This document shows positions 9,001-28,826 of a stretch of DNA of 33,490 bases, piece by piece. A model generated the notes under the pieces. That model was not told the DNA's origin, did no database searches, and saw only the letters and a program-made list of their open reading frames with translations. The translations under genes and the position numbers were made by a program. The stretch is from positions 1 through 33,490 of IMG/VR virus record IMGVR_UViG_3300017727_000068. One strand, 5' to 3'. This DNA comes from a virus (lineage: Duplodnaviria; Caudoviricetes). Position 1 is the first letter of the stretch, and each line of letters begins with the position of its first letter.

Positions 9001-9007
9001 GCCTATT

Positions 9008-9036: not shown

Positions 9037-9073
9037 GCTTTATATTGCTTTTTAAAATTAATTTCGATAGTAC

Positions 9074-9273: not shown

Positions 9274-9307
9274 CCCACCCACCCCCCGTGGCACACCTGC
9301 CCACCCC
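9274..9307 (-). other. C-tract/G-tract element (G-quadruplex capable on minus strand)
   Basis: CCCACCCACCCCCCGTGGCACACCTGCCCACCCC, preceded by TATATATATA. Confidence 0.5.
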
Positions 9308-9383
9308 TATAAAGCCCGTAGCTACAGCGTTTAAACTGTACACACTTGCAAAGCGTAGCAAGATTTACGGGCTACTTATCAAG

Positions 9384-9488
9384 CTGTACAAAATTTATAC
9401 AGTTGCAGAGCTGTACAAAATTTATACAGTTGTAAAACTTGCAAAGCTGGTTAATGCGTTTGGCAAGTTGTACAAAATTTATACAGTT
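9384..9488. repeat. Three copies of near-palindromic TGTACAAAATTTATACAGTT
   Basis: Copies start at 9385, 9412 and 9469. Confidence 0.9.
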
Positions 9489-9634
9489 TATATTCAAAAC
9501 TTTACAACGTGCAAAGCTTCACAAAACCACCCCTAAAAATAAATTAAAGTTTTTTCATTTTGGGGGTTGTGTTTAAACTCAATCTGTGAAATAATTCTCT
9601 TATGTTTAACAATAATCAAAAGGAGAATATAAAC

Positions 9635-10222
9635 ATGAATAATATTAAATATAGAGAAGAGTGGCTTAACAAAGTAGCCGAAGAGTTGGACAAGGTGGCG
9701 TTTAAACCTAACGGGCATAAATTACCACCAGTCAAAATATCTTGCAGTTGGGCATTAGGAAACAGAGCAAAGAATAAAAAGACTTTAGGGCAATGTTTCC
9801 CGACAAGTTGGAGTGATGGCAAAGTGAATGAGATTATACTTGTTCCTACTGTTCAAGATAGTTTTGAAATTGCCGACACTTTAGCCCATGAGTTGGCTCA
9901 TGCTGTTGATGATTGCAAAAGTGGACACGGAAAAGGGTTCAAGGATATTTGTCTAGCTGTTGGATTAGATGGCAATACTCAGATGAGATATGCCGAAGCA
10001 GGGGAAAAGTTAGGAGAACAAATAAAAGCAATCATTAAAAAGGTTGGAGAATATCCCCACGATAAAATGACGATAACCGACAGAAAGAAACAGAGTACAA
10101 GAAATTTAAAAGTTGAATGTTCATACTGTGGGTTTGGTTGGAGAGCATCTAAAACCATGATTGAAAGAATGAATAACTGGACTTGCAACGATTGTGGAAG
10201 TGATACGCTAGAGATTGTTTAA
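9635..10222 (+). CDS. SprT-like zinc metalloprotease with C-terminal zinc ribbon
   Basis: TLAHELAH...GHG..F (HExxH), CSYC...CNDC. AAGGAG SD before ATG 9635. Confidence 0.8.
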   Translation: MNNIKYREEWLNKVAEELDKVAFKPNGHKLPPVKISCSWALGNRAKNKKTLGQCFPTSWSDGKVNEIILVPTVQDSFEIADTLAHELAHAVDDCKSGHGKGFKDICLAVGLDGNTQMRYAEAGEKLGEQIKAIIKKVGEYPHDKMTITDRKKQSTRNLKVECSYCGFGWRASKTMIERMNNWTCNDCGSDTLEIV

Positions 10223-10238
10223 ACTCTCTCTAAAAATT

Positions 10239-10263
10239 AGCCCCTTAATTGGGGCTTTTTTTT
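10239..10263 (+). terminator. Rho-independent terminator
   Basis: AGCCCC-TTAATT-GGGGCT followed by a T run. Confidence 0.9.
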
Positions 10264-10562
10264 GTCTGTAATTTCTCACACTTGCAAAGCGTTTAAACTT
10301 TGCCCTTTAATCATTCAAGCTAATTAGAGCCGTTTTAAGGGCTTGTTTGTCTATCTGATGTTATGCCCTTAACTACTTGCTAAACGTTCAATAGAGAGCA
10401 TTTAAAACGTTGTATGTTTATACAGTAATTTAGTTAAATAAACTTATAAAAACTATTGCATTTTATTTCTAAAAATGTTAGTTAAAAAAATCACTAGCAC
10501 AAATTGACAGAGAACACAAGCAATTTAATTAAAATAAATTTAAAATAATTTGATTAAAATAC

Positions 10563-10591
10563 TTGCAATGTGATTAATAATTTTATAAGGT
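10563..10591 (+). promoter_or_regulatory. Putative early sigma70 promoter
   Basis: TTGCAA, 17 bp, TAAGGT with a very AT-rich upstream element. Confidence 0.45.
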
Positions 10592-10637
10592 GTTCATATT
10601 GTTTAATTAAATACAAATATAAAAGGAGGTTTAAACA

Positions 10638-10901
10638 ATGCGAGTACAAAATATGACAAGTGCGAGAGGTAATAAAGTGGCGAATCAATTTATTATAAAT
10701 GATGAGGGGGCTGAATATTTCCAAAGTTATAGAAGTATCATAGCTAAGAAATCACAAGGTAAAATATATCTTGATGAATATTACTGGGATTATTCAACGA
10801 CTACAGGAAAATACAGGAATCAATTTCTAAATGAGGGCATAGCCGACACAAGGAAAAAGATTCAGAGTGGCGAATATATATTAACAGACTTAAATAACTA
10901 G
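10638..10901 (+). CDS. Early hypothetical protein (FQSY.S.IA...WDYS.TT.KY)
   Basis: Strong SD. Motif recurrent in phage early proteins. Confidence 0.8.
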   Translation: MRVQNMTSARGNKVANQFIINDEGAEYFQSYRSIIAKKSQGKIYLDEYYWDYSTTTGKYRNQFLNEGIADTRKKIQSGEYILTDLNN

Positions 10902-10917
10902 AGGAGGTTTAAACAGT

Positions 10918-11061
10918 ATGAATAAATTAAAAAAAGAGTGGGCAATTTTTCAACAGGATTTTAAAAGACAGGCAGAAGACAGCTTGATATTTAGAATAAA
11001 TTGGTATATATTAAAACCAATAGCAATAGTATTAGTTATTATTGCGATAACAATTATATAA
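10918..11061 (+). CDS. Early 47-aa protein with C-terminal transmembrane helix
   Basis: Not in ORF track. GAGGAGG SD, MNKLKKEW...KPIAIVLVIIAITII. Confidence 0.7.
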   Translation: MNKLKKEWAIFQQDFKRQAEDSLIFRINWYILKPIAIVLVIIAITII

Positions 11062-11082
11062 ACTAAAGGAGGTTTAAACGTT

Positions 11083-11268
11083 ATGATTAAAATATACAGA
11101 GATACTTTCACACCAAAGAAAAAGTTTAGGCATATCAATATCTTAGGCTTTAAATTTAGAGTGAAGACTTACGCAAGAGATTCAATTACTAAGTATAATA
11201 TTTATACAGATAGGCAAGGCTTGGGGTTGAACTTTAGAAGAATGAATGTTAAGATATATAGAAGTTAA
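11083..11268 (+). CDS. Early basic hypothetical protein
   Basis: AAGGAGG SD, 61 aa. Confidence 0.75.
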   Translation: MIKIYRDTFTPKKKFRHINILGFKFRVKTYARDSITKYNIYTDRQGLGLNFRRMNVKIYRS

Positions 11269-11291
11269 AAACTTAAGGAGGTTTAAACACT

Positions 11292-11459
11292 ATGAGTAGA
11301 GAAAACGCAGAGGGGTACGACATACCAGAGACAACAGCAGAAGCTTTTGAAGTGGTGGTGGATGTATGCAACAGAGAAATAGAATGGGCTTATGAAGATA
11401 CAGAAGACATTTCAGAAGCTTTGAAAATTTTACATAACTTTATATATAAGGAGGTTTAA
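11292..11459 (+). CDS. Early 55-aa acidic protein
   Basis: Not in ORF track. AAGGAGG SD, MSRENAEGYDIPETTAEAFE...IYKEV. Confidence 0.75.
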   Translation: MSRENAEGYDIPETTAEAFEVVVDVCNREIEWAYEDTEDISEALKILHNFIYKEV

Positions 11460-11464
11460 ACGTT

Positions 11465-11653
11465 ATGGACAAAGAAATTATATCGCAAATTTACTTTGAT
11501 GCTGTTGATTTAAAAAGAACTTTAGAAGTTAATAACTTAACTCATTATAAAAGAGTTCATGGAGGAACAGACAACGAGGATACTACAGGAGATTTAATCG
11601 AAAATATTTTATATCATATAGATAATATGTATAACAACTTAGAGGAGGTTTAA
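11465..11653 (+). CDS. Early hypothetical protein
   Basis: AAGGAGG SD, 62 aa. Confidence 0.75.
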   Translation: MDKEIISQIYFDAVDLKRTLEVNNLTHYKRVHGGTDNEDTTGDLIENILYHIDNMYNNLEEV

Positions 11654-11658
11654 ACATT

Positions 11659-11916
11659 ATGAACGTAGATAGCGACAAACCAAGATACATTGAGTGTATC
11701 TATCAAGCACCAATTACTTTTGATTTAGAAGAATTAGAGGTTGACTTTGATAAGGTAGAAGATTACTATATCAAATATGGAACGCTACATATTACCTATA
11801 AAGATGGTAGTACAGCAGAACATGATGGAGATATTGGCGACCCAGATTATAAATGGGCAGAAGAAGAAAGTATATTAACAGAAGATTGGTATTTAGTGGA
11901 GGGACTTAATGGATAA
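11659..11916 (+). CDS. Early acidic hypothetical protein
   Basis: GAGGAGG SD, D/E-rich, 85 aa. Confidence 0.78.
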   Translation: MNVDSDKPRYIECIYQAPITFDLEELEVDFDKVEDYYIKYGTLHITYKDGSTAEHDGDIGDPDYKWAEEESILTEDWYLVEGLNG

Positions 11917-12226
11917 TGACTTAATTAAAACGGAGCAAATGTATCAGATAAGAGAACGTTTAAACAGATTGTGGCAGATACCAGACAGACCAGATTTGTT
12001 TGATGATTGTTGCGAGTTCATGTATGATAGGCAGGGGCAAGATGTTGATGCGACTTTACTTATAAAGTTTTTATCTCATCATGCTACGAATGGTATGTCA
12101 TCACAAGAGTTAGATGATATGGCTAATGACTATCAACAGGATATGTTTAAACAAGATGAAGATTATTGTGAGCATTGTGGAGATACACTTGACAAATGCA
12201 CAGGATATAAATGTTGGATAAAATAA
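11909..12226 (+). CDS. Early hypothetical protein with C-terminal Cys cluster
   Basis: GGAGG SD, CEHCG....KCTGYKCW. Confidence 0.72.
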   Translation: MDNDLIKTEQMYQIRERLNRLWQIPDRPDLFDDCCEFMYDRQGQDVDATLLIKFLSHHATNGMSSQELDDMANDYQQDMFKQDEDYCEHCGDTLDKCTGYKCWIK

Positions 12227-12236
12227 AGGAGGTACT

Positions 12237-12392
12237 ATGATTACACTTAAAAGAATAAAAGATATTGCAGACGATATTATTGCAGATACAGAATGGGTAA
12301 ATGATACTCATACTGAAGCTGAACATAATGGAATTGTAGATGGTTTGAATAGGTTAATTGAACATTTAGAAGAAACTGAGGAGACAACATGA
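12237..12392 (+). CDS. Early 51-aa acidic protein
   Basis: Not in ORF track. AAGGAGG SD and ATGA overlap with the next gene. Confidence 0.72.
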   Translation: MITLKRIKDIADDIIADTEWVNDTHTEAEHNGIVDGLNRLIEHLEETEETT

Positions 12393-12883
12393 ATATATTT
12401 TATTTTTATGACAGCCCTATACAATCGGCAGAAGCACAACCAGATAAGATGCTAGTGAAGATGCCCTTAGAAACTGCACAAATGCTCTGTACTGCACACA
12501 GAGAGTTAGATGGGGATGAGTATGCAGATAGTGTAGGACTTTACAAACGAGCATACTGGAATCATCCGTGTACGATATGGGCTAGGGAGTGTAATGAAAA
12601 TTACTCATGGTTATATGCTCATTTTCTAGCACTAGGAATGGAGTATACTTACAGATATGGTAAGGAACATGCAAGTATTACTAAGTTGGCTAAACCTTTA
12701 ATGCAATTTCCTAAAAATATAAAGAGTGGTAAGATGACAACAGTTGCACAAGCTATGCCAGATGAGTACAAAAATGATGACCCTATCAAGGCTTACAGAG
12801 ATTACTGTACCCATGAAAAACACTATGCTAAGTGGGAGAAAGGTAGAGCCAAACCAGACTGGTGGACTAAGGAGGTAGCATGA
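12389..12883 (+). CDS. Pyrimidine-dimer DNA glycosylase/endonuclease V-like family protein
   Basis: MNIF...DK..VKM.LE.AQML.TAH, NHPCT.W.R...NY.WL, AQAMP.EYK..D...AYR.Y. Confidence 0.7.
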   Translation: MNIFYFYDSPIQSAEAQPDKMLVKMPLETAQMLCTAHRELDGDEYADSVGLYKRAYWNHPCTIWARECNENYSWLYAHFLALGMEYTYRYGKEHASITKLAKPLMQFPKNIKSGKMTTVAQAMPDEYKNDDPIKAYRDYCTHEKHYAKWEKGRAKPDWWTKEVA

Positions 12884-13098
12884 TTATAGATATAAGAGAA
12901 AAGAACGTAATGTATATTACGACAACAACAGGTAAAACAATATACATAGATGACTCAACAGATGAATTAATAATAGATACTTGGGATATGGATGGACAAC
13001 CTATCGAACCTATGATAATGTTCACCCCAGATTTTGAGATAGATGATAAACCAACCCTAACATTAGTGAAAGATAACAAGGAGGAAGATGATGAGTGA
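12880..13098 (+). CDS. Acidic hypothetical protein
   Basis: AAGGAGG SD, ATGA overlap. Confidence 0.72.
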   Translation: MIIDIREKNVMYITTTTGKTIYIDDSTDELIIDTWDMDGQPIEPMIMFTPDFEIDDKPTLTLVKDNKEEDDE

Positions 13099-13330
13099 TA
13101 CATTGAGAGTAGGAGATGCTGTCTCTTGGAGTGGTGGCTTCGGTATGGAAGCACACAGAGAAGCAACAGTCGTAGGTATACAGGTAAATTATTCTAACGG
13201 AAGTAAGGATGGTGTAGCTGTAGATGAAATAGACTGGTGGCATATACAAGAACGAAACCAAATCATTGATTTAGATAATGGTCATTGGGCTTGGGCATTT
13301 CAAATCAAACCAATAGAAGAGTATGTTTAA
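13088..13330 (+). CDS. Hypothetical protein (small beta-barrel-like)
   Basis: GAGGA SD, LRVGD.V.W and LDNGHWAW. Confidence 0.7.
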   Translation: MMSDTLRVGDAVSWSGGFGMEAHREATVVGIQVNYSNGSKDGVAVDEIDWWHIQERNQIIDLDNGHWAWAFQIKPIEEYV

Positions 13331-13356
13331 ACAGACTCAATTAATTAACAAAGTGT

Positions 13357-13385
13357 TTGACTTACCCTTAAAAAAATGTTATAAT
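13357..13385 (+). promoter_or_regulatory. sigma70 promoter with extended -10
   Basis: TTGACT, 17 bp, TATAAT with TGn. Confidence 0.8.
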
Positions 13386-13469
13386 CTTTTAAATTTTTTA
13401 AGGTATCAAACAAATAATTATAATAATTAATAAATTAAATAATTAAAATATTTTAAAAAGGATATAAAT

Positions 13470-13604
13470 ATGAGTGATGATACAAAAAGAATTATAAATA
13501 TTGATGATGTTGTAGATGATTACTACAATAATGCACCAATTATAGATACAAACGAGTATAGTGATGATATGTTAGGAGAGGAGGACTATGATGACAGAAC
13601 ATAA
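13470..13604 (+). CDS. 44-aa very acidic peptide
   Basis: Not in ORF track. AAGGA SD, MSDDTKRIINIDDVVDDYYNNAPIIDTNEYSDDMLGEEDYDDRT. Confidence 0.6.
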   Translation: MSDDTKRIINIDDVVDDYYNNAPIIDTNEYSDDMLGEEDYDDRT

Positions 13605-13860
13605 TGATAGGGTTAGTCAACAAAAGTTGCTAATTGAAGCAGAAGAGTGGGCAAAAGTTCCTAAAAGCATTCATGTTCACAGCTTAAAATCTATGTGGTA
13701 TGACGATAGACCTTGGGATACTGAGGTTGGGAAGGTTGTGGACATAGAATATAATAATGGATTGGTTGTTAGAAAAAAATATGGCGAGACAATACATATT
13801 TTTGGAGAAGAAAAAACAGGACAAGAGTTAGTAGATTTGTATTGTAGAGGTGGAGCATGA
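13588..13860 (+). CDS. Hypothetical protein
   Basis: GAGGAGG SD, 90 aa. Confidence 0.75.
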   Translation: MMTEHNDRVSQQKLLIEAEEWAKVPKSIHVHSLKSMWYDDRPWDTEVGKVVDIEYNNGLVVRKKYGETIHIFGEEKTGQELVDLYCRGGA

Positions 13861-13991
13861 CACCACAATTTAATGGCAGAGATTTTATATATTTATTTTT
13901 TATGTTAGCGTGTTTCATTACTGCATTTAGTATTTGCGACACAACGTTTAAACATGATTGCTATGTTATAGATACAAGGTACGTAGCATGA
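13857..13991 (+). CDS. 44-aa membrane peptide
   Basis: Not in ORF track. ATGA overlaps at both ends, hydrophobic FIYLFFMLACFITAFSIC. Confidence 0.6.
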   Translation: MTPQFNGRDFIYLFFMLACFITAFSICDTTFKHDCYVIDTRYVA

Positions 13992-14287
13992 CACAGAATT
14001 TTAGTAAACAAGAATTAGAAAATTCTAAAAGAATATTTAAATCAGCAACACCTAAATATGATTTATCTTGGTATGTTAAATGGTCAGCATCAGCCATCAT
14101 GTTATTAGCAATGTCGTTTAGAGGTGCACAAGTTTTACCACAGTTTGATTTAATGCTATCCTTTGTAGGATGTTTAGGTTGGTTGTGGGTAGGGGTTCTG
14201 TGGAAAGACAGAGCATTAATTATTTTAAATGCTGTAGCAGTAGTGATATTGTTTAGTGGTATTTTAAAACTATTCTTAGGAGGGTAG
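13988..14287 (+). CDS. Small 3-TM membrane protein (DUF6552-like)
   Basis: Start MTQNF at 13988. LSWYVKW, GWLWVG.LW.DRALI.LN. Confidence 0.65.
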   Translation: MTQNFSKQELENSKRIFKSATPKYDLSWYVKWSASAIMLLAMSFRGAQVLPQFDLMLSFVGCLGWLWVGVLWKDRALIILNAVAVVILFSGILKLFLGG

Positions 14288-14288
14288 T

Positions 14289-14486
14289 ATGAGAGAAGAA
14301 ATTTTACAAGCGTTGAAGAATACATTTGAAAGTCATATAGGTTGGCACATTATGAATGTAAATATTATGTTAGATAAATCAGTAGGAGTGGCAGAGCATC
14401 CAGATACTTTACAAACGTTAGAGGATGAGCTACAAAAGATTTCTGAATACAATGACAAGCTTGAAGTTCTCAGCAAATATTTTTAA
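14289..14486 (+). CDS. Conserved phage hypothetical protein (VGVAEHPD)
   Basis: AGGAGG SD. Helical hairpin family common in marine phages. Confidence 0.75.
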   Translation: MREEILQALKNTFESHIGWHIMNVNIMLDKSVGVAEHPDTLQTLEDELQKISEYNDKLEVLSKYF

Positions 14487-14494
14487 AATAATTG

Positions 14495-14523
14495 TAGACT
14501 TTGTAATTAAGATATGATATAAT
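14495..14523 (+). promoter_or_regulatory. sigma70 promoter with extended -10
   Basis: TAGACT, 17 bp, TATAAT with TGn. Confidence 0.7.
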
Positions 14524-14533
14524 GCACATTATT

Positions 14534-14731
14534 ATGAACAACAAAACAAAAACTTTAACAAGGGATGAGTATAGAAACTTTCAAAAGTTTATAGAAGACT
14601 TACCTACTCAAACAGGATATATGGTAGAGCATGTAAACGATTACTATAAAGTTTCTTTTCTTAAGGACATAGACTTTTGTTGGACAGAATTTTTTAATTA
14701 CAATGATGGAGATGTTCGTGGCGTGTCATAA
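14534..14731 (+). CDS. Hypothetical protein (near-leaderless)
   Basis: ATG 14522 overlaps the -10 box, so the in-frame ATG 14534 is preferred. No SD. Confidence 0.6.
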   Translation: MNNKTKTLTRDEYRNFQKFIEDLPTQTGYMVEHVNDYYKVSFLKDIDFCWTEFFNYNDGDVRGVS

Positions 14732-14943
14732 GGATAGCCCTCATAAAATTCCTTTTATACTTATGACAAGCGATTCAGTCGTGCAAGTTTCTGGTCTTGT
14801 GCCCTCAAAACCAGCTCCTTTTGAACCGTTTAAACGTGGTGCAAGAGCCACCGTAAAATCCTTTCCCCTTATCAATCAGGTTTGTGAAAGGTTGTGGATG
14901 AAGCAGGATAAGAACTACACCAAGTACTGCCACCCGTTTAAAC
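14724..14943 (+). ncRNA. Candidate structured non-coding element
   Basis: GC-richer intergenic segment with several hairpins and C/U-rich loops. Confidence 0.4.
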
Positions 14944-14969
14944 AACTTCAAATTAATTTCAAAAAACTA

Positions 14970-14998
14970 TTGAACTCAAAGCCAAAGTATGATATAAT
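14970..14998 (+). promoter_or_regulatory. sigma70 promoter for the replication operon
   Basis: TTGAAC, 17 bp, TATAAT with TGn. Confidence 0.75.
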
Positions 14999-15033
14999 GG
15001 CTACACTTAATACAACCTATGGAGGACAAAACT

Positions 15034-15447
15034 ATGTATGAGTATTTAGATGGAAAGAGTATGTATGCTAACGTGACTACACCTAACAGGAGATTTGAAC
15101 CACACAAATATCAAATCGTTGTACTTACAGATGAGGATACTGCTAATAGACTGGAGGGTCTAGGTTTAAAACAAGTGAGAACCAGAGATGGTCAACTTAA
15201 GTATGATGAACCTGCATTCTCTTTTAGTAAACAAGCCAATAGAAAAGATGGCACACCTAATGATGCACCTAAGTTAGTTGATAGCGAAGGTAATTCTATA
15301 GATATGTCTGTTGGAAATGGCTCAACAGTAAGGGTTAAGATTAAACCTTATACTGGAACATATGGTACATTCGCAGAGCTTATGGCTGTGAAGGTATTAA
15401 ACTTAGTTGAATATGCAGAGGAAGACTCTGACAACGAGGAATTTTAA
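15034..15447 (+). CDS. Single-stranded DNA-binding protein (T7 gp2.5-like)
   Basis: GGAGG SD before ATG 15034. VGNGS.V.V and L.AV.V..LVEY, with an acidic tail ending in F. Confidence 0.8.
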   Translation: MYEYLDGKSMYANVTTPNRRFEPHKYQIVVLTDEDTANRLEGLGLKQVRTRDGQLKYDEPAFSFSKQANRKDGTPNDAPKLVDSEGNSIDMSVGNGSTVRVKIKPYTGTYGTFAELMAVKVLNLVEYAEEDSDNEEF

Positions 15448-15448
15448 T

Positions 15449-15715
15449 ATGATTATTAATATAAAAAATGATGATGGTGAAGTCCAATATGATGTTAATA
15501 AAATAGCAGATGAGGATAAGAAGCGTGGAGCAACTGTGACTATATCTAAGGTAGGTAGTTTAGAAACTATCATAGAAGCATTACAGTTTGCAAGTTCTAC
15601 ACATAGAAGTAATCTTGAGAATCTTTTAAAAGAAACTCCTGAAGCTATGGTAGAAGTAGAAGAACCTGTTGAAGAAGTGGAGACTGTAGAAGCAGAAACA
15701 ACAGATAACGTTTAA
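15449..15715 (+). CDS. Acidic hypothetical protein
   Basis: Start MIINIK just after the ssb stop. Confidence 0.7.
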   Translation: MIINIKNDDGEVQYDVNKIADEDKKRGATVTISKVGSLETIIEALQFASSTHRSNLENLLKETPEAMVEVEEPVEEVETVEAETTDNV

Positions 15716-15720
15716 ACATA

Positions 15721-17394
15721 GTGAGGGCTAACATGGAAAAAACTTGGGATAAGTTACATCAACCTTGTCCACTTTGTAACAGTAGTGATGCTGTTGGAAT
15801 CAACGAAGATGGTTCAGCAAAGTGCTTTAGTTGTGGTGAGTTTATGCCTGACTATAATAAAGCATGTGAGGGAAAAGATATGGAATTTAAAACAGAAACT
15901 AAACAACCTGACGTAGTAGATGAGGGAGTGTTTTCATCTTTAACAGATAGAAAAATCTCTCAACCTACTGCAACTAAGTATGGAGTAAAGGTAGTACATG
16001 ACCATCAAGGTAATGTCATTAAACATTTTTATCCATACTACAACGGACATGAACTTGCAGGTACTAAGTGTAGGAATGTAAAGAGCAAAGACTTTTTTGT
16101 TTCCGGTACTTATAATGAAACAGGTTTGTTCGGACAACAACTCTTCAAGAGTGGTAAGTATGTTACTATAACGGAAGGGGAGTGTGATGCGATGGCAGCT
16201 TACGAATTGCTAGGAAGTAAGTGGGCTGTGGTATCCATCAAACGTGGTGCTCAAGGAGCTGTACGTGATGTAAAAGAAAGCCTAGAGTTCTTTGATGAAT
16301 TTGAAAATGTAATCATTGCATTTGATAATGACAAAGCAGGAAAGGAAGCAGCAATAAAAGTAGCGAGGCTGTTTAAACCTAGTAAGGCTAAGATAGTTAC
16401 ACTCCCCAATGGGTACAAAGACCCTAACGATATGCTTAGAAACAACAAGCATAAAGAGTTTGTTGAATCGTGGTGGGCAGCTAAAGTCTATACACCATCC
16501 GGTGTCATCAATGTCTCAGAGCAACGAGAAAAATTTCACAATAGAGAAAAGAAACAAAGCGTTCCTTATCCTTACAAAGGATTGAATAAGAAACTCTATG
16601 GACTCAGACAAGGAGAACTTGTAACTCTTACAGGTGGAACAGGTCTCGGTAAGTCTAGTGTGACTAGAGAGCTAGAGCATTGGCTTATCAAAGAGACTGA
16701 AGACAACGTAGGTATCATAGCACTTGAAGAAGATTGGAGAAGAACCATTGATGGTATCTTATCTATTGAAGCTAATGCTAGACTATACATTGACCAAGAA
16801 CGTGAGAAGTTTTCAGTAGAAGAACTTGACAAAATGTTTGACATACTGTATGATGGCGATAACAAGAATAGAGTATGGGTACATTCTCATTTTGGTACTA
16901 ATGATATTGATGACATCTTTACTAAACTTAGGTTTATGATTATAGGATGTGATTGTAAGTGGATAGTCGTAGACCATCTACATATGTTAGTTAGTGCTGT
17001 GCATGAAGGCGATGAACGAAGAGCTATTGATTCTATTATGACTAGGCTTAGAAGTTTAGTAGAAGAAACAGGTGCAGGTATTATTTTAGTTTCCCACTTA
17101 CGTAGAGTAGATGGTAACAAGGGACATGAGAATGGTATAGAAGTTTCTCTATCACACTTACGAGGTTCAAATAGTATTGGACAACTTAGTGATTGTGTGA
17201 TAGCATTAGAAAGAAACCAACAATCGGATGACATGGATGAAGCTAGAACAACTAAGATGCGTGTATTAAAATCAAGATATACAGGAGATGTAGGTATGGC
17301 TTGTAGAGTAATATATGATAACGAAACTGGGAGGCTTACTGAACTAAGTGATGAAGACATAGAGTTTGATGACAGTTCAGATGAAGCATTTTAA
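15721..17394 (+). CDS. Primase-helicase (T7 gp4-like)
   Basis: CPLC...CFSC zinc finger, TOPRIM EGECD/FDND, Walker A GGTGLGKS, VVDHL and LRGS. Start could be ATG 15733. Confidence 0.95.
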   Translation: MRANMEKTWDKLHQPCPLCNSSDAVGINEDGSAKCFSCGEFMPDYNKACEGKDMEFKTETKQPDVVDEGVFSSLTDRKISQPTATKYGVKVVHDHQGNVIKHFYPYYNGHELAGTKCRNVKSKDFFVSGTYNETGLFGQQLFKSGKYVTITEGECDAMAAYELLGSKWAVVSIKRGAQGAVRDVKESLEFFDEFENVIIAFDNDKAGKEAAIKVARLFKPSKAKIVTLPNGYKDPNDMLRNNKHKEFVESWWAAKVYTPSGVINVSEQREKFHNREKKQSVPYPYKGLNKKLYGLRQGELVTLTGGTGLGKSSVTRELEHWLIKETEDNVGIIALEEDWRRTIDGILSIEANARLYIDQEREKFSVEELDKMFDILYDGDNKNRVWVHSHFGTNDIDDIFTKLRFMIIGCDCKWIVVDHLHMLVSAVHEGDERRAIDSIMTRLRSLVEETGAGIILVSHLRRVDGNKGHENGIEVSLSHLRGSNSIGQLSDCVIALERNQQSDDMDEARTTKMRVLKSRYTGDVGMACRVIYDNETGRLTELSDEDIEFDDSSDEAF

Positions 17395-17396
17395 TT

Positions 17397-19617: not shown

Positions 19618-19618
19618 A

Positions 19619-21093: not shown

Positions 21094-21367
21094 ACTTAAT
21101 TATAAATTTAAAGAAGATTTAATTATCGCTGATATAAAAAAACATATTGATGCTACGTACACTCAACACTATGCTAACGGTAAGTACCAAGCAACTGATA
21201 TGATATTAGATGCTGGACATGGTGAAGGTTTCTGTCTTGGAAACATTATGAAGTACGCTATGAGGTATGGTAAGAAAGATGGTAAGAACTCAAATGACTT
21301 GCTAAAGATTATTCACTATGCTATAATAGCTTTATATATAACAGGAAACGAAGATGATAGAAGATAA
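21083..21367 (+). CDS. DUF3310-family protein
   Basis: GTG start after GGAGG. HY...Q, GFCLGNIMKYAMRYGKK.G...DLLK. Confidence 0.8.
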   Translation: MKRKLNYKFKEDLIIADIKKHIDATYTQHYANGKYQATDMILDAGHGEGFCLGNIMKYAMRYGKKDGKNSNDLLKIIHYAIIALYITGNEDDRR

Positions 21368-23249
21368 GATAGGTAAGAAACCTTACTTAGGAATTTGTAT
21401 AGATTATAATAAAGAGAAAACGTTTGATAAGTTTAGTCTAGATACTCTTAAGGACAGATACTTTTGGGATAAAGAGACCCATGCTCAAGAAGCTTTTGCA
21501 AGAGCTTCGGTATTTGGAGCAACGTACAAAGGAGAAACAGATTATGAATTGGCTCAAAGACTTTATAACTACAGTTCCGACTGTTGGTTTATGTTCAGTA
21601 CTCCTATACTTAGTAACGGAGGAACAACTCGTGGGCTTCCTATCAGTTGTTTTCTTAATTACGTACCTGACAGCAGGGGTGGTCTCTCTGCTCATTACGA
21701 TGAGAACATATGGTTGGCGAGTTCGGGTGGAGGCATCGGTGGATATTGGGGAGATGTTCGTAGTAATGGTATTTCTACTACTCATGGCTCTCGTTCTACT
21801 GGAAGCATTCCTTTCATGCATGTAGTTGATTCTCAAATGTTAGCCTTCAATCAAGGCACTACAAGGAGAGGAAGCTATGCAGCTTACATGGATATAAGTC
21901 ATCCAGAGATTGAAGAGTTTGTAAACATGAGAAGAGAATCAGGTGGTGATATTAATAGGAAGTGTTTAAACCTTCACAATGGAATTAATATAACCAACTC
22001 ATTTTTAGAAGCTGTTGAGAATGATGAAGACTGGAGATTGATTGACCCTAAAACTAATGAAGCTGTAAAGACAATCAACGCTAGAGATTTATGGTGGCAA
22101 ATACTTTTTGCTAGAGCCGAGACAGGTGAGCCTTACATGATTAATATAGATACATGTAATGATGCTTTACCTAAAGAACAAAAAGATTTAGGATTAAGTA
22201 TTAGACAAAGTAATCTATGTTCAGAAATAACTCTACCTACAAGTGAAGAACGCACAGCAGTATGTTGTTTGTCTTCAGTAAACTTGGAACACTTTGATAA
22301 GTGGTCAAAGGATGAATCTTTTATTAATGATTTAATTACAATGCTTGATAATGTTTTACAACACTATATAGATAATGCTGTAGACACATCACAACTAGGA
22401 GAATATAGTGCAAACTTCAAACGTTTTTCAAAATATATTAGAGAAGGTAAGGAAGGCTATACCAAATCAGCTTATTCAGCGTATAGGGAAAGGTCTCTTG
22501 GTCTTGGGGCGATGGGCTTCCACGCTTATCTTCAATCTAAAGGAATACCTTTTGAAGGTATATTCGCAACTGGCTTCAATCATAAAGCCTTTAGTTACAT
22601 CAAAGGTGAAGCGACAAAAGCTTCTCAATACTTGGCAGAAGAAAGGGGTGAAGCTCCTGATATACATGGTTCAGGGCTTAGAAATGCTAATCTATTGGCT
22701 GTTGCTCCTAACGCTTCTTCCGGTATTATTTGTAGTGGGACTTCCCCTAGTATTGAGCCTTATAGGGCTAACGTCTATACGCACAAAACTTTGTCAGGTA
22801 CTTACCAAGTTAAGAACAAATACTTAGAAAAACTTTTAAAGTCTAAAGGATTGAAAGCCACAGAACTTGAACAAGTTTGGAAAGATATTGCTGGTAGTGA
22901 AGGTTCGGTACAACATCTAGATATATTAGATGAGAAAGAAAAAGAACTATTTAAAACAGCAAATGAAATAAATCAAATATGGATTGTCGAACATGCACAT
23001 ATGAGACAAGAATTTATTTGTCAAAGTCAAAGTGTAAATTTATTTTTTACACTACCTAAGACTACGGATGACCAAGAGGTACATGATGAATACATGCAGT
23101 ATGTAAATGATGTCCATTGGTATGGTATGCATAAACTTAAATCGCTATATTACTTTAGGTCTAATGCAGCTAGAAACGTAGAGAATGTTAATTTAAAAAT
23201 CCCTCGTATTAAATTAGATGAAGAGGGATGTATTGCCTGTGAAGGCTAG
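21354..23249 (+). CDS. nrdA: Ribonucleotide reductase class Ia alpha subunit (no ATP cone)
   Basis: STPILSN, PISCF, QSNLCSEI, APNASS, KSLYY, C-terminal CIACEG. Confidence 0.96.
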   Translation: MIEDKIGKKPYLGICIDYNKEKTFDKFSLDTLKDRYFWDKETHAQEAFARASVFGATYKGETDYELAQRLYNYSSDCWFMFSTPILSNGGTTRGLPISCFLNYVPDSRGGLSAHYDENIWLASSGGGIGGYWGDVRSNGISTTHGSRSTGSIPFMHVVDSQMLAFNQGTTRRGSYAAYMDISHPEIEEFVNMRRESGGDINRKCLNLHNGINITNSFLEAVENDEDWRLIDPKTNEAVKTINARDLWWQILFARAETGEPYMINIDTCNDALPKEQKDLGLSIRQSNLCSEITLPTSEERTAVCCLSSVNLEHFDKWSKDESFINDLITMLDNVLQHYIDNAVDTSQLGEYSANFKRFSKYIREGKEGYTKSAYSAYRERSLGLGAMGFHAYLQSKGIPFEGIFATGFNHKAFSYIKGEATKASQYLAEERGEAPDIHGSGLRNANLLAVAPNASSGIICSGTSPSIEPYRANVYTHKTLSGTYQVKNKYLEKLLKSKGLKATELEQVWKDIAGSEGSVQHLDILDEKEKELFKTANEINQIWIVEHAHMRQEFICQSQSVNLFFTLPKTTDDQEVHDEYMQYVNDVHWYGMHKLKSLYYFRSNAARNVENVNLKIPRIKLDEEGCIACEG

Positions 23250-23258
23250 GAAAAAGTT

Positions 23259-24242
23259 ATGAGCTTATTATCAACAAGAGATTATTATAAACCGTTTGAG
23301 TATCCATGGATGTATGATTACTACAAACTACAAAACCAAATGCATTGGATGCCTGAGTCTGTACCTTTACATACAGATGTAAAAGATTGGCAAGACATTT
23401 CAGAAACAGAAAAGAATTTACTAACACAAATATTTAGATTGTTCACTCAGTCAGATGTAGATGTAGCTTCAGGATATATAGATAAGTATATGCCTATCTT
23501 TAAAAAACCAGAAGCAAGAATGATGATGAGTTCTTTTGCTAACATGGAATCAATACATCAAGATGCCTATAGTTTATTACTTGACACAGTTGGAATGCCT
23601 GAGTTAGAATATAAAGCATTCTCTGAGTATGAAGAAATGGCAGACAAGCATGATTATGTGGGAACGTTTAAACCACGTAAGAATGATAAGAGAACGATTG
23701 CAAAAACTTTAGCAGTTTATTCTGCATTTACAGAAGGACTACAATTATTTAGTAGCTTTGCAATCTTGTTAAACTTTCCTAGATTTGGAAAGATGAAAGG
23801 GATGGGACAGATTGTAACTTATTCTATACGTGATGAGTCAATGCACGTTGAAGCAATGACTAAATTATTTAGAGAGTTTATTCAAGAGAACATAGATATA
23901 TGGACAGATGATTTCAAAGGCGAACTATATCAAATATGTAGAGAGATGGTTGCACTTGAAGATAAGTTTCTTGATTTAGTATTTGAGATGGGAGACTTAC
24001 AGGGATTAACTAAGAAAGATATGTATGCTTATAATAGATACATAGCAGATAGAAGATTATTACAGCTTGGTCTTAAAACTAATTACGACCAGAAAGAGAA
24101 TCCACTTGGATGGATAGATGAAGTCATGGGTGTTGAACATCAAAACTTCTTTGAAGGTAGAGCTACAACTTATATGAAAGCTGGACTCAGAGGAAAACAA
24201 GACCTAATGAACTTCGCAAACTTAAGGACAGTCAATGAATAA
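23259..24242 (+). CDS. nrdB: Ribonucleotide reductase class Ia beta subunit
   Basis: W.PE, FTQSD, ESIH..AY, EGLQLFSSF, RDESMH, NFFE.R...Y. Confidence 0.96.
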   Translation: MSLLSTRDYYKPFEYPWMYDYYKLQNQMHWMPESVPLHTDVKDWQDISETEKNLLTQIFRLFTQSDVDVASGYIDKYMPIFKKPEARMMMSSFANMESIHQDAYSLLLDTVGMPELEYKAFSEYEEMADKHDYVGTFKPRKNDKRTIAKTLAVYSAFTEGLQLFSSFAILLNFPRFGKMKGMGQIVTYSIRDESMHVEAMTKLFREFIQENIDIWTDDFKGELYQICREMVALEDKFLDLVFEMGDLQGLTKKDMYAYNRYIADRRLLQLGLKTNYDQKENPLGWIDEVMGVEHQNFFEGRATTYMKAGLRGKQDLMNFANLRTVNE

Positions 24243-24450
24243 TAAAACAGAAGCTAATCTTATTAGTTTCAAAGTTCTACTTACTAAAGATAACAAGATA
24301 GTAACTGAATTATCTCAGCTACCATTAGATAAAGTTGATGGGTGTTTTCCAGAACACGATAGAGTTTTAATAAAAACTTTACTCAGACGAGCAAAAGAGA
24401 AGCTTGACCCCATACATAGGTTTTTAGAACGTGAAACTGGGGTTTTATAA
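24235..24450 (+). CDS. Hypothetical protein
   Basis: 71 aa, AAGGA SD, last gene of the plus arm. Confidence 0.7.
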   Translation: MNNKTEANLISFKVLLTKDNKIVTELSQLPLDKVDGCFPEHDRVLIKTLLRRAKEKLDPIHRFLERETGVL

Positions 24451-24472
24451 AAAAACGACCTCACACAATAGC

Positions 24473-24552
24473 CGTAGTTAAACGAACAGGATGTAAGTAA
24501 TACCATTGGTCCAAAAACATCTAACGTTTAACCACGAGCTTCTATGTAGCTC
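24473..24552. other. Imperfect long hairpin at the convergence of the two arms
   Basis: CGTAGTTAAACG (24473) / CGTTTAACCACG (24525), inner GATGT/ACATC, then GAGCT/AGCTC. Confidence 0.55.
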
Positions 24553-24570
24553 TCATAGCATTTACCTATT

Positions 24571-26307
24571 TTAAGCTATTGTATAAATGTTTATTGGCTT
24601 TTCTTTGCCTTTTACATGGATAGAGTCTAACTTTTGGTACATCGTACCATTATAATTCTTAATAGTTTCTTCACCTATAACTAAATCCTTACCTACAGTC
24701 TTACAACTAGACTCTAAACGAGCTGCTAAATTTACAGCATCACCTATAGCTGTGTAATCAAACCTAGTATCGCTTCCCATATTACCTATCACAGCATCAC
24801 CTGTATTTACACCGATACCTATATCAATATCTAAATCTGATTCTTTCATTTTAGTTTTTATTTCTAACGCTGCTAAGATTGCTTGATGTTCATGTTTCTT
24901 TAAATCCATAGGTGCATTAAATATAGCCATCATTGCATCGCCTATATATTTATCTACCATCCCACCATACTTTTTAACTGCATCAGCTTGGATAGTTAAA
25001 GCTTTGTTCATAATCTCTGTGACTTCTTCCGGTTCTAACTTCTCTGATAAACTTGTAAAGCCTCTGACATCTGTAAATAAAAAGGTACATCTTCTTCTTT
25101 CACCACCTAATTTTAAAAGCTCTGGATTATTCTGTAATCTTTTAACTTGTGCTGGGTCAAGGTAATGTTCAAATTGTTTTTTAATTTGTTGACGTAGTTT
25201 AAACTGTGTCCTAAAATTAAGATAGAATTGTTGAGTTGCAATAAGTGTCATACTTATCATACTCCATGTAACGTCTATCAAGTATCCAATAGAAATAAAG
25301 TAATATCCTAAGTATGCGATTGCAGACATTAAGATACCAAATGATATAACACCATAGGTCACACCAAGATAAGACAGGAGGAACGCTGTGAGTAAGCCTG
25401 AGATACATAATATAAATAGCTCAGTCAACAATCTAGTATCAGGAATATTAGGAGTATCCAGTAACATACTTTCAGATAGGGCTGCTTGAATCTTATGTGG
25501 TTCTAATAAACCTGTAGGTGTTGCAAGTTGTGGTGATATTCCTTTAGCTGTAAATCCTACGAACACAAACTTGTTAGCAACATTCATTTCTTGTATTGTA
25601 GTTTGTGGTGTATCAACCCAACTAATCCATTTACGACCAAGACTATCTGTAGGTATTGGATTTAATCCTCTTACTCTTATCATCTCAATACCATTTGGAT
25701 TTGTTACAATCTGATATGTCTTACCTCCACCAAGTATCTTCAATACTTCTGTGCCAAAGGAAGCAACCCATCCTTCTGGTGTTTGTTGTAGTAAAGGTAT
25801 TCTTCTTACAAGATTATCTACATCAACTGGAGCAGAGATAGCACCTTGACCTGCAGACTGTTTAAACGTTGTTATGTTCTCTATGAATCCTCCGGCTTTC
25901 GGTAAGTTTACATCTGGTCCTTTAATAACTGTACCATGTGTTGCAGGATATAAACCATTATCTAACTCTGGCATACCTATAACAGATGGAGAACTTTGTA
26001 AAGCTATAGAGAATGCATCATCTCCTCCTAGTCTATCCGGATGTGGAAATAACATGACCCATCCTACACCTAAAGCTCCTGCTTCTATTAATTGATTATG
26101 TATATCAGCTAATCTTTGTCTGGGTAAGGGGTATCCTCCCTCATCATTCAGGTCTTGTTCGGTAATGTTTAGTATAGAAAAATATCCAGTAGGTTCTGGA
26201 GTTTGTACGAAAGTATCAAAGGTCTTAAGCCTAAGTATTTCTAAAGGTACAGAGTTAAAAAGTAAAGGTACAAGTAAGAGTCCAAGTAAAGGTAAAGACC
26301 ACTTCAT
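24571..26307 (-). CDS. CHASE2-domain class III adenylate cyclase
   Basis: N-terminal TM, CHASE2 (G.YP.PR...A, DVDNLVRRIPL), three TMs, and cyclase motifs FTDVRGFT, DKYIGDA and YTAIGDAVNLAARLES. Confidence 0.93.
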   Translation of the reverse strand: MKWSLPLLGLLLVPLLFNSVPLEILRLKTFDTFVQTPEPTGYFSILNITEQDLNDEGGYPLPRQRLADIHNQLIEAGALGVGWVMLFPHPDRLGGDDAFSIALQSSPSVIGMPELDNGLYPATHGTVIKGPDVNLPKAGGFIENITTFKQSAGQGAISAPVDVDNLVRRIPLLQQTPEGWVASFGTEVLKILGGGKTYQIVTNPNGIEMIRVRGLNPIPTDSLGRKWISWVDTPQTTIQEMNVANKFVFVGFTAKGISPQLATPTGLLEPHKIQAALSESMLLDTPNIPDTRLLTELFILCISGLLTAFLLSYLGVTYGVISFGILMSAIAYLGYYFISIGYLIDVTWSMISMTLIATQQFYLNFRTQFKLRQQIKKQFEHYLDPAQVKRLQNNPELLKLGGERRRCTFLFTDVRGFTSLSEKLEPEEVTEIMNKALTIQADAVKKYGGMVDKYIGDAMMAIFNAPMDLKKHEHQAILAALEIKTKMKESDLDIDIGIGVNTGDAVIGNMGSDTRFDYTAIGDAVNLAARLESSCKTVGKDLVIGEETIKNYNGTMYQKLDSIHVKGKEKPINIYTIA

Positions 26308-26308
26308 A

Positions 26309-27418
26309 TTAATTTCCTTGAGTTATTGTTATAGTAGAGTCACCCCCACCATTCACCACAATCTGTGTGCTCTTGCCATTCTGTATTAGTATGACAGTAT
26401 ATGAACCACTCTTGTCTAAATCTAATCTAACAGTATCTTCTAAAGCTTTATAAAAAGTTATAAGATTGTCTGTGGAAAAAGTATTGATTTGAGTTTCTTG
26501 GTCAAACCCAAATGATGTACCTTTTAAATCTATGTCTGTTTTTAATAGTGTGTTTGTATTATCTAATTCGTTTATGTCTTCAATAATATTTAGTAGGTCT
26601 TCTAAAAAATTTACATCAAGATAATTTATATCTAACTCTGTAAACTCTAACTCATCACCTGCTAAATAGTCCTGCTCTAAATCGTCAAAATCGAGATAAT
26701 CAATATCAAGAACATTACTTGAACTACTACCTCCGTCTTGTCTTCCTGCAACTTCATTCTCCTTTGGTTTACTTACAATCAACATGTTATCAATTAACTC
26801 AAGTGTCAAGTCAAGGATAACTGGTTTAGTGGGTGCAGCTTCAAACATTGAAACTGTTGTAGCTTGGTAAGGCTTGTTAAGTACAACCTCTCCCATAGCT
26901 GTAGCAACTACAATCTCTCCACTAGGTAGACCTTCGTTGTCAGGTAATAAGATAACTAAACTGCGACCTAGTTCATCTACAGTCACAGTAAAATCAGTCC
27001 CACGAATACCTATCGTAGCACTTGGAGTTTTTATAAATATGTTTTGTTTATCTATAGTTGCTAGTTTTCCTGTGATAAATCTTGCAGTACCACTAGCAAA
27101 CTGTAGAGCCATCTTAGATTTAGATGGGTCAGGGTCATATATAAACTCATCAATTATGAGTTCAGAATGTTCAGTCAATCTAACTTGACTATCATCTAGA
27201 AACGTAATGCCCACTCTCCCATTAGAAGTTTGGACATTATCGTAACTATTTATGTTGAAAGATAATGAAGCTTCGTAAGTATTGTCTCTTACAACTCTAC
27301 CAAAACCTTTAAGTTCTGTAATGCTGCCTATATCAGCAACCGACTGCTGTTCCCCCATCGTTCTGGATGACACAAACAGTACCACTAGAACCAGTAGAAA
27401 GTATCTTAAGCCAATCAT
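26309..27418 (-). CDS. Exported FecR-domain protein
   Basis: Signal/TM, D.VQT..GR..I.F.DDS.V.L..HS.L.ID, TPSATIGIRGTDF, acidic C-terminal half. Confidence 0.85.
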   Translation of the reverse strand: MIGLRYFLLVLVVLFVSSRTMGEQQSVADIGSITELKGFGRVVRDNTYEASLSFNINSYDNVQTSNGRVGITFLDDSQVRLTEHSELIIDEFIYDPDPSKSKMALQFASGTARFITGKLATIDKQNIFIKTPSATIGIRGTDFTVTVDELGRSLVILLPDNEGLPSGEIVVATAMGEVVLNKPYQATTVSMFEAAPTKPVILDLTLELIDNMLIVSKPKENEVAGRQDGGSSSSNVLDIDYLDFDDLEQDYLAGDELEFTELDINYLDVNFLEDLLNIIEDINELDNTNTLLKTDIDLKGTSFGFDQETQINTFSTDNLITFYKALEDTVRLDLDKSGSYTVILIQNGKSTQIVVNGGGDSTITITQGN

Positions 27419-28043
27419 TATCCAATGTACTCTGTTGTTGTATGTTAAATGTTCTAGAACTTCCTGTCTGGTCTAAGTAAAAGTAACCACCTGCATAGCC
27501 TTGTCCATCAAAGCTAACCGTGTTTGAATCTCCATCAATATCCATATACGATGTACCACCATCATAATCAATATCAAAGTCAATCGTGTTACCTGAACCA
27601 TTGATTATCCAATCAAGGTCTGTATTACTAGCCATAGCACTTGTCGCTAAGTCAAGCGTAAAAGTGTTAGTACTTCCAGTTACATCAACATTTAAGTTAG
27701 AACTATCTGCTCCGTATGTGTTTGTAGGGTCTACTTGAATTGTGAAACTATTACTGTCTCCATCAAACTCAAAGAAACCTGTCAAACTATCAGCAAGAAT
27801 ATCTCCTAAGAACTTATTAGTATCACCAATTTGATTGATGTCTAATGTCATACCAGTTCCATCTAAATCAAGAGGTGTTAAAGTACCGGCTACGGAATTT
27901 AAACCTCCAATAATATTAGCAGAACCGAGTTGCTCTAAATCAAGATTTGCTGTAGCACCAGATTGCTCAACGTATATTTCATTATCAGCAGCATAAATAC
28001 CTAAAGATATTATAGCTACTAAACTTAATATTATTTTATTCAT
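27333..28043 (-). CDS. Secreted curlin-like (CsgA/CsgB-like) beta-repeat protein
   Basis: Sec signal (..YA-ADNEIY.EQ.G), repeated Q.G..N and .G.SN strand-turn units, N/S/T/G/D-rich, directly after csgG. Confidence 0.65.
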   Translation of the reverse strand: MNKIILSLVAIISLGIYAADNEIYVEQSGATANLDLEQLGSANIIGGLNSVAGTLTPLDLDGTGMTLDINQIGDTNKFLGDILADSLTGFFEFDGDSNSFTIQVDPTNTYGADSSNLNVDVTGSTNTFTLDLATSAMASNTDLDWIINGSGNTIDFDIDYDGGTSYMDIDGDSNTVSFDGQGYAGGYFYLDQTGSSRTFNIQQQSTLDNDWLKILSTGSSGTVCVIQNDGGTAVGC

Positions 28044-28826
28044 ATTCCCAATAGCCTCTCTCTATTCCTATATTTATTATATTTAATACTCCTGTTTCTA
28101 TTGCCTTTTGTAAAGCTATAGAGACAGATTCATTCTCAGCTACACCACCTTCTATTTCTACCAGCTCTGTTTGCTGCTCAATAAAACGAAATATATCCTG
28201 AGAAATACTTGTTGATAAAATGCTCTTGGTCACTAACGTTTCCATTAACACTTCACCAGTTGATACAGAAACTAATCGTAGTGATATTGTAACTGTATCT
28301 TCTCTGTATTGTTTACTGTTACCTATTCCTAAATAACGAGCACCCAATCCACCAGACTTTAGATTAGCCTCATATGAGACTACTCCACCCTGAACTAACA
28401 ATCCTGCAAAGAGCAGGGGTTTTAATTTATTATCTTCTTCAAACTCTTTACGAGTACTTCTAATAAGTTGTCTTTCTTTTGTAAGGTCATCTAATCCTAC
28501 ACGTTCTACAACTCTAAAAAACTTACCATGTGCAGTATGTTTAAACGCCCTAATTAAAAATGCTTCGGGTGCTTGAGTAATAGCTGTACTAAATAATGCA
28601 AAGGTACTATTACTTCTACGCTGCCCTGTTAAATCTTTAAAACTATTTGGGTATATAGCTATCGTTGGCTGAACTTTTGCTGCTGGTAAATTTTGTAAAG
28701 TTTCTGATTGTAGCTCTAGGATATATGGAGACTGTATTTTTTTGTTAATACTAAGTCGTCATTCTCATTTAGAACAGCACAACTAGAAAGTAAAACTGCC
28801 AATAGGCAACTGAATAACCGTGACAT
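28036..28826 (-). pseudogene. csgG: Curli secretion pore CsgG, reading frame split at A7 run (28737-28743)
   Basis: Lipoprotein signal MSRLFSCLLAVLLSSC from 28826. After a -1 shift: FKDLTGQRR, FSTAITQ, FRVVERVGLDDLTKERQLIRSTR, GG.GARYLGIG.S.QYRED.VT.SLR.VSVSTGEVL. Confidence 0.88.

Follow-up and report, generated by a model that had tools for sequence, protein, structure and literature searches.

Why should a phage genome carry one 8-bp palindrome, GTTTAAAC, again and again along one side only, and which protein, of the host or of the phage, reads it? The question is raised by the IMG/VR virus record IMGVR_UViG_3300017727_000068 (Caudoviricetes), of which the whole stretch of 33,490 nucleotides was analysed (hereafter the window). 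An exact count found 27 copies of GTTTAAAC in the window, all inside 9329–28546, with none in 1–9328 and none past 28546. The original prediction, counted by eye, had given 25 copies (12, 9 and 4 by zone); the excess it described stood, its numbers had to be raised (13, 9 and 5), and its site-free stretches (1–9300 and after 28546) agreed with the exact count. The array fills about 19 kb nearly to saturation, its left edge is sharp, and its copies form three blocks:

9329–12152, no strand: dense block of 13 copies (9329, 9571, 9700, 10217, 10291, 10629, 10907, 11072, 11281, 11454, 11648, 11958, 12145)
13325–18941, no strand: nine copies (13325, 13946, 14828, 14936, 15710, 16371, 17987, 18088, 18934), four of which arise by synonymous codon choice within the genes for primase/helicase and DNA polymerase
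21964–28546, no strand: five copies (21964, 23666, 25197, 25860, 28539), which fall within ribonucleotide reductase and at the far end of the late arm on the minus strand

Selection on the word within the window

In 100 dinucleotide shuffles of the window the word had a mean of 1.35 and a maximum of 5 copies, in line with the one to two copies first estimated as the chance expectation. No other 8-mer ranked above GTTTAAAC when Markov orders 2, 3, 4 and 6 were used as the null, with 1.4, 2.8, 3.9 and 11.6 copies expected. The enrichment also held under a codon-aware null, for which 50 open reading frames (ORFs) of the window were listed by hand and an opportunity was defined as a place where synonymous codons permit the word. 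Within 9.6–28.4 kb, 11 of the 17 opportunities were used against 1.7 expected, and outside this zone none of eight (Fisher p = 0.003). The six unused opportunities inside the zone were all Gly-Leu-Asn contexts, in which a G is forced before the word; this is a disfavoured flank, 79% of the 1181 distinct contexts, pooled and read on both strands, having T or C there. When the Gly-Leu-Asn contexts were removed post hoc, use was 11/11 inside the zone and 0/7 outside.

Selection on GTTTAAAC acts at the DNA level, as had been proposed, and synonymous-codon tests in other loci gave the same picture. Codon or amino-acid bias was ruled out as the cause of the excess by the codon-aware null. The copies had been described as lying inside coding sequence, which is true of the 11 of 27 wholly within the listed ORFs; seven stand 1–4 nt upstream of a start codon and six, all in the dense block, come directly after a GGAG ribosome site. 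A ribosome-site repeat alone would account for these 6 of the 27 only.

The predicted fall in density along the array was borne out in part. Under uniform placement the probability of finding no site in 1–9300 is 1.5e-4, and the gaps between copies grow along the order (Spearman 0.64, p = 4e-4), but synonymous use inside the zone is flat with distance (3/6, 4/5, 2/2 and 2/4), and the slope therefore partly reflects the coding freedom of the small early genes and is not a pure effect of distance.

Phages usually purge palindromes, and the phage of the window drops four 4-mers fully (GATC, 0 vs 107, as well as GGCC, GCGC and CGCG), while a fifth word is filled near saturation. Among the relatives (L001–L080) the avoidance of GATC was lost in one large clade, which is also without the array.

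The candidate reader and its company across viruses

The reader of GTTTAAAC is probably the product of the phage's own first gene, a SprT-like protein at 9602–10222, and it is very probably the zinc ribbon of this protein that binds the word, to judge from the records in which gene and word occur together. The features of the gene are:

9602–10222, plus strand: zinc protease of SprT/SPRTN type, 206 aa, ending in a zinc ribbon; no clear gene precedes it on this side of the putative genome end; putative reader
9887–9901, plus strand: HELAH zinc-protease motif, residues 96–100; missing from 32 of the 59 array loci that have the ribbon
10082–10219, plus strand: KKQSTR and C4 zinc ribbon, residues 161–206; putative DNA-binding module
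9567–9595, plus strand: weak promoter-like element TTGTGT-17-AATAAT (8/12, by eye, below the promoter-scan threshold), its −35 overlapping the site at 9571; putative autoregulatory operator
10239–10266, plus strand: terminator-like hairpin after the gene, from a sequence scan

The protein matched the Pfam family SprT-like PF10263 (E 1.4e-7, 31.8 bits against a cut-off of 25.6) and phrog_6361. Its predicted structure (pLDDT 88) had human SPRTN as the best fold matches (6mdw and 6mdx; for 6mdw prob 0.99, E 1.8e-3, TM 0.33), and the ribbon model resembled only generic zinc ribbons. No named match came from a PDB sequence search with the protein or from an Atlas search with the ribbon (best 0.84). 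Across 32 aligned sequences Q164, R167, C173 and C195 were invariant and HEXXH was variable. The promoter-over-site layout ahead of the gene was likewise present in loci L011 and L238.

When viral contigs were scanned for the word in three spaced copies, 103 matches were obtained, of which 78 were distinct loci with flanks (a few pairs sharing a contig) and 23 were short and left unscored. The array loci span 25–55% GC, and the one protein family common across their groups was that of 9602–10222, once its cluster, at first chained to a neighbouring amidoligase, had been separated. A ribbon profile, built from 54 sequences of these same array loci, matched 59 of the 78: 27 with HEXXH, 24 with a degenerate or cut protease and eight with the ribbon only, one of these last being cut by its contig end. 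The ribbon thus appears to be the retained part of the protein in array loci. Gene sharing divided 83 array loci into 14 groups, seven of them with two or more loci, and the array thus occurs in no fewer than seven groups of unrelated phages, among them abundant aquatic viruses. In L213 (10606–11630), L188 (5797–6749) and related actinophage-like loci the ribbon gene is followed by an amidoligase, with a glutamine amidotransferase-like gene nearby.

The pairing was also approached from the protein, with a query from the array loci. The set of 86 loci consisted of six from one search and the best 80 of at least 459 matches, three of them repeating earlier contigs. Among these matches listed, 70 of the 86 loci were enriched in GTTTAAAC (p < 0.001; 511 sites vs 17.0 expected), and nine of the 16 unenriched carried GTTTACAC 2–15 times. 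Twelve named records, spread over hosts, were then taken from 172 phage and 70 plasmid matches, and 6.6–45.8 kb of each was read. All ten ribbon-bearing phages and plasmid had GTTTAAAC (Venkman 34, Pan1 5, Bas97 4, pPDL2 3, Alexa 2, R5C 2, Mica 1) or the variant GTTTACAC (Maureen 17, Emotion 8, UNTPL 8), and the two homologues without a ribbon, CN1 and Epa5, had zero sites. The same GTTTAAAC was found in phages of 34–63% GC and of named hosts in several phyla. By these comparisons of sequence records the word was shown to travel with the ribbon across unrelated phages.

A GSGY loop was considered as the residue giving specificity for GTTTACAC. It fits six loci together with Emotion and Maureen, but UNTPL and L360, L362 and L374 use GTTTACAC with a normal CxxC loop, and no specificity residue is therefore claimed. 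A literature search found no description of the pairing of GTTTAAAC with SprT, subscription journals being thinly covered; the accessible part of a survey of Microbacterium phages reports other repeats and mentions neither SprT nor GTTTAAAC (PMC7302621). The undisplayed repeats and supplements of a preprint on cluster AZ phages could hold the variant GTTTACAC.

Whether relatives share the polarised word had been set as a test of the original prediction, and the word was found in relatives as well as in unrelated phages. Of 80 primase loci, 11 were array-bearing, with 112 sites over 110 kb, and the other 69, with 22 sites over 583 kb, were not. The relative L011 (89%) had 17 copies with mostly different flanks, the complete array-bearing relative G011 had 13 sites and the gene (1/1), and the fragment G006, which begins beyond the gene's place, had 15 sites. 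Three near-complete array-less relatives had 1–3 sites each and the SprT-like gene in none (0/3). In a primase tree of 65 rows, from which duplicates, short and stop-bearing matches had been dropped and in which several nodes were weak, array-positive and array-negative lineages interleave; the trait was therefore gained or lost several times.

Some array-less relatives keep single sites at the positions of the window: L033, L041, L047 and L065 at primase +2266/2269, L052 and L068 at +656/662, and L039 at +3216. These are either remnants of lost arrays or easy codon contexts. No comparable replacement word was found in 19 array-less loci and two HTVC records, the best candidates (about 1e-10) being mostly codon or ribosome-site words, and a suspected CRP box did not prove to be one.

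Position of the array and the inferred genome end

The nearest isolates of the window were HTVC103P-type pelagiphages (primase 47%, TerL 65%), and the window is an HTVC103P-like marine podophage. The plus strand from 9.6 to 24.5 kb holds primase/helicase, polymerase and reductase, and the minus strand from 9021 leftward terminase, portal and capsid; HTVC103P-type phages are described as podoviruses with such a two-module plan (bioRxiv 2019.12.14.876532). Because the HTVC103P record opens with small early genes and ends with TerL, the window is probably permuted, with its genome end near 9.1–9.6 kb:

4748–9021, minus strand: start of the late arm, on the site-free side of the edge (TerS 8572–9021, small genes, IscU, TerL 4748–6397)
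9267–9520, no strand: putative genome end or terminal-repeat region, non-coding and bearing short direct repeats, from which the late and early arms diverge; layout matched to HTVC103P

The contigs of four sequencing runs all break at 9267–9296, with depth right vs left of 162 vs 57, 34 vs 16, 28 vs 22 and 22 vs 17; this is a weak hint of a genome end, strain mixtures giving the same pattern. The array edge may in turn predict genome ends in uncultured phages. Two perfect (12/12) back-to-back sigma-70 promoters stand at 9008–9102, one toward TerS and one toward the inferred end. At the inferred terminus array-less relatives carry clustered CTTTATAAAG and TGTCACA repeats (L041, 2120–2570), and the window has TGTACAAAATTTATACAGTT repeats there.

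An IscU/NifU gene lies amid the late genes (7212–7637, minus strand), with its nearest cellular matches in SAR86. Its similarity to SAR86 genomes was 70–72%, and five better matches (75–81%) were on short contigs of mixed labels. SAR86 as the host is thus a guess.

The position of the sites relative to TerL was compared in 87 loci with a TerL match and at least three sites; these loci are not independent and many are centred on arrays. Most sites were upstream of TerL in 86 of the 87, the exception being the Venkman record, in which a cut separates the array from the terminase genes. Over the pooled loci the density was 2.3–2.8 sites per kb at 1–5 kb upstream and 0.07 per kb in the first kb of TerL, and synonymous use was 517/666 upstream and 37/115 downstream. 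Downstream use differed by group (window phage's 0/10, L330 0/29, L184 2/10, actinophage-like 16/23). Over whole records synonymous use was zone-limited in G011, G012 and Venkman, near genome-wide in G013 and G014, and at chance level in G008 (2/25), G010 (0/18) and HTVC103P (0/21).

The proposed tie of the array to the packaging end is upheld by these counts. In T7 and lambda the DNA end upstream of TerL is packaged last and enters first (last in, first out). By this rule the array end would be the first-entering end.

Shield, repressor and other explanations

The array is real, selected, widespread and tied to a phage gene, a shield and a repressor being the leading candidates for its function. 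The two may both hold, autorepression being ancestral and the array an expansion. Preferred, tentatively, is a self-mark that would tether the SprT-like protein to the first-entering DNA as a shield, combined with autorepression; this takes up the protective mark among the original guesses. Produced at the outset from the end that probably enters first, the protein would coat the site-bearing DNA there. Bound in this way it might block host proteins that load on or slide along the incoming DNA, such as restriction translocases, H-NS/Lsr2-type silencers or covalent adducts, which is the weakest step. Where HEXXH is intact, it could also cut such proteins, as SPRTN does with DNA-bound proteins. 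Each added site would give a small benefit, so that synonymous positions fill, and the benefit would fade for later-entering DNA; a single site in the gene's own promoter would limit the protein level. More doubtfully, the pair could be a mobile two-part self-marking module, in which the ribbon reads a fixed word in nearly every free synonymous or spacer position of the first-entering DNA and tethers a SPRTN-like protease or coat that strips off or blocks host defence proteins.

A shield is favoured by the constancy of GTTTAAAC across hosts, whereas the operators of phage immunity systems diverge between phages (PMC6550527). Its precedent is ArdC of plasmid R388, a DNA-binding protein with a SPRTN-like protease that acts in antirestriction without requiring the protease activity (PMC7213743). 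ArdC binds single-stranded DNA non-specifically through its N-terminal domain and has no site array (PMC7213743), whereas the window protein has the protease first and the ribbon last and no match to a single-stranded DNA-binding Pfam domain; a match to ArdC was not found in the PDB sequence and fold searches. The crosslink proteases SPRTN and Wss1 resemble the window protein in joining HEXXH with a zinc-binding DNA module (fold E about 2e-3), but they are eukaryotic, they target a DNA structure and not a word, and in the phage family the protease is often lost. If the shield were true, it would be counter-defence by sequence self-marking without methylation, run by the invader, for which there is no described precedent.

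Several results weigh against this preference. The ribbon was not found in 19 of the 78 array loci within the DNA scanned; three of these have just three sites, L204 has a divergent SprT, the contig of L243 carries a ribbon outside the locus, and in four other fragmentary records the search gave no convincing match. Fold searches with the protein and ribbon models gave no match at E ≤ 0.001. Loci with a dead or absent protease had medians of 32 and 38 sites against 17 for the others, a difference confounded with lineage, and since the densest arrays go with a dead or absent protease, cutting cannot be the core function. The high use in G013 and G014 extends genome-wide and downstream of TerL, where their group uses 16 of 23 opportunities, so a restriction to first-entering DNA is not general. 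In three groups, that of the window included, the sites keep to the arm transcribed away from TerL (39/51 vs 2/10, 52/61 vs 4/13 and 40/49 vs 1/4), and in the L330 group they stop at the strand switch. A site lies at most 100 nt upstream of the gene in seven of the ten ribbon-bearing named records, often at the −10 or in the promoter spacer. Finally, Liebe, with a truncated gene, is clear and Maureen turbid, which points to control of lysogeny (bioRxiv 2025.05.26.655371).

A stoperator-like repressor is a close rival: the same reader would bind its own and early promoters and road-block RNA polymerase at many sites. It may brake early and middle genes for lysogeny, for a non-integrated waiting state or for later shut-off, and the protease may be the switch. 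Sites placed like operators where the gene itself is promoted (Bas97, Alexa, Mica, Pan1, Emotion, Maureen and UNTPL), the contrast of Liebe and Maureen, the gene's nearness to an integrase in Bas97, Alexa, Mica and Maureen, the dispensable protease with the densest arrays lacking a working one, and the tracking of the early/middle arm in three groups all argue for it. The cluster AZ preprint lists the SprT-like protease (Lizalica gp46, Maureen gp49) as a repressor candidate, no repressor having been identified in the cluster; it names no binding site and gives the repeats as "data not shown", and Liebe and Maureen also differ at three other bases (bioRxiv 2025.05.26.655371). Maureen has the 17 copies of GTTTACAC; in the window the word is palindromic and is packed densely on one side. 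Actinobacteriophages (Maureen, L420, at 19639, 35412, 36338 and 37114; L369; L373) also have oriented repeats that resemble promoters, TTGCG..-17-TAG.CT, in which GTTTACAC occupies the spacer or directly follows the −10; these repeats are candidate operators of cluster AZ-type phages.

The promoter counts speak on both sides. Of 652 intergenic sites, delimited by a rough gene caller, 13 lay on promoters of at least 10/12 against 3.25 in shuffles, but 98% were off strong promoters and at the 9/12 cut the excess was gone (19 vs 16.5). In the window the eight best promoters are all clear of GTTTAAAC, and among dense-array genes only 17 of 34 had an upstream site within the 125 nt examined. Over the 21 actinophage-like loci density climbs from 0.3 to 4.1 per kb along an operon read toward the end, away from its promoter, and continues past the strand switch; transcription of the Venkman gene also runs toward the end, and there too the array peaks at the end. 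Further against a repressor, the integrase families PF00589 and PF07508 were absent from the complete G011 and from G013 (G014 has a tyrosine integrase), the word does not diverge as immunity operators do, and saturation within primase and polymerase would brake lytic genes.

The layout is nearest to the stoperators of Cluster A phages such as L5 and Bxb1, which have 20–30 sites for a phage protein genome-wide, mostly off promoters and one of them proposed as autoregulatory (PMC6550527); the window likewise has 27 sites, few at promoters. Those sites are 13–14 bp long, asymmetric and oriented, vary between phages and are bound by a helix-turn-helix immunity repressor (PMC6550527), whereas here an 8-bp palindrome with only a pyrimidine/purine flank preference is the same across hosts, is anchored at the packaging end, occurs in two genomes without integrase and has as candidate reader a zinc ribbon on a protease. 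In layout the system is nearest to stoperators and in protein to ArdC and SPRTN, yet it departs from each in defining features. If the repressor were true, the operator of a new repressor family would be named and the missing immunity factor of cluster AZ offered. Under the shield and the repressor alike, a common "SprT-like" phage gene gains a sequence-specific partner, testable in cultured Venkman, Bas97 and Maureen/Liebe.

That the word has its reader in a widespread protein of the host, be it a restriction enzyme, a methylase or a nucleoid or defence factor, with the phage offering marks or decoys and the SprT-like gene a linked counter-measure, is improbable. The word is the PmeI site, some array loci show no ribbon, and restriction pressure is real because the four 4-mers are wholly avoided. 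Clusters of host-factor sites also have a precedent in the CtrA sites of alphaproteobacterial phages (lytic deferment), which are skewed one-site clusters that evolved repeatedly in unrelated phages (PMC9437464). There, however, a host regulator reads the sites and promoters are favoured (PMC9437464), whereas here the sites fill coding DNA, the reader is probably the phage's own, and 18 of 98 strong promoters were overlapped by sites against 12.6 expected. The host protein or host methylation mark of the original prediction is disfavoured, the word tracking a phage gene, being identical over phages of very different GC and hosts of several phyla, and being rare and unpatterned in the likely host group; ribbon-less homologues have no sites and ribbon-only forms retain arrays. 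Five of five SAR86 genomes held just 10–18 sites per 1.1–1.2 Mb, 19 of 20 inspected being in open frames, and the SprT-like protein was not found in these five incomplete genomes. HIP1, uptake sequences and Chi are words over-represented in the host chromosome. A host word or its mimicry was rejected accordingly, GTTTAAAC not being over-represented in SAR86, the host only inferred (4 in 400 kb vs 5–11 expected). A three-fold depletion there against a reversed control is no evidence, because it fades to 4 vs 5–6 at Markov order 4–6. A literature search for the host link found no report.

Arrays in which no ribbon was found in fragmentary records (L205, L209, L210, L198, L250) have either the gene off the contig or a second reader.

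An entry ratchet, in which the protein would seize each site on its exit from the capsid, stop back-sliding and help pull the genome in, is still less probable. The array upstream of TerL in 86/87 loci, the gene at the leading edge, the strand-independent slope in one group and the absence of a phage RNA polymerase among 54 window ORFs scanned would suit it. Capsid pressure is, however, highest at the start of ejection, so help would be needed late, whereas in the window's group the sites crowd toward the leading end and the last-entering arm has none; the slope thus disfavours the translocation aid first suggested, and close relatives manage without gene or array. Very improbable is a drive in which repair or recombination, biased where protein is bound to the DNA, makes sites pile up although they bring no benefit, an idea put forward for the iterated palindromes of cyanobacteria: synonymous positions are near saturation and one-mismatch words are scarcer within the zone (5 in 9.9 kb) than outside it (16 in 14.2 kb), but the sharp terminase edge and the fast decay in gene-less lineages (G008, G010) require an extra assumption, and no methylase or recombinase travels with the arrays.

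Beyond the array genes, the minus strand at 24571–29277 holds a host-like cluster in a podophage, with CHASE2-adenylate/guanylate cyclase, FecR, CsgG and CsgF curli genes. The CsgG ORF (28036–28401) spans only profile positions 92–207, with stops in the upstream frame, and the gene may be split or broken.

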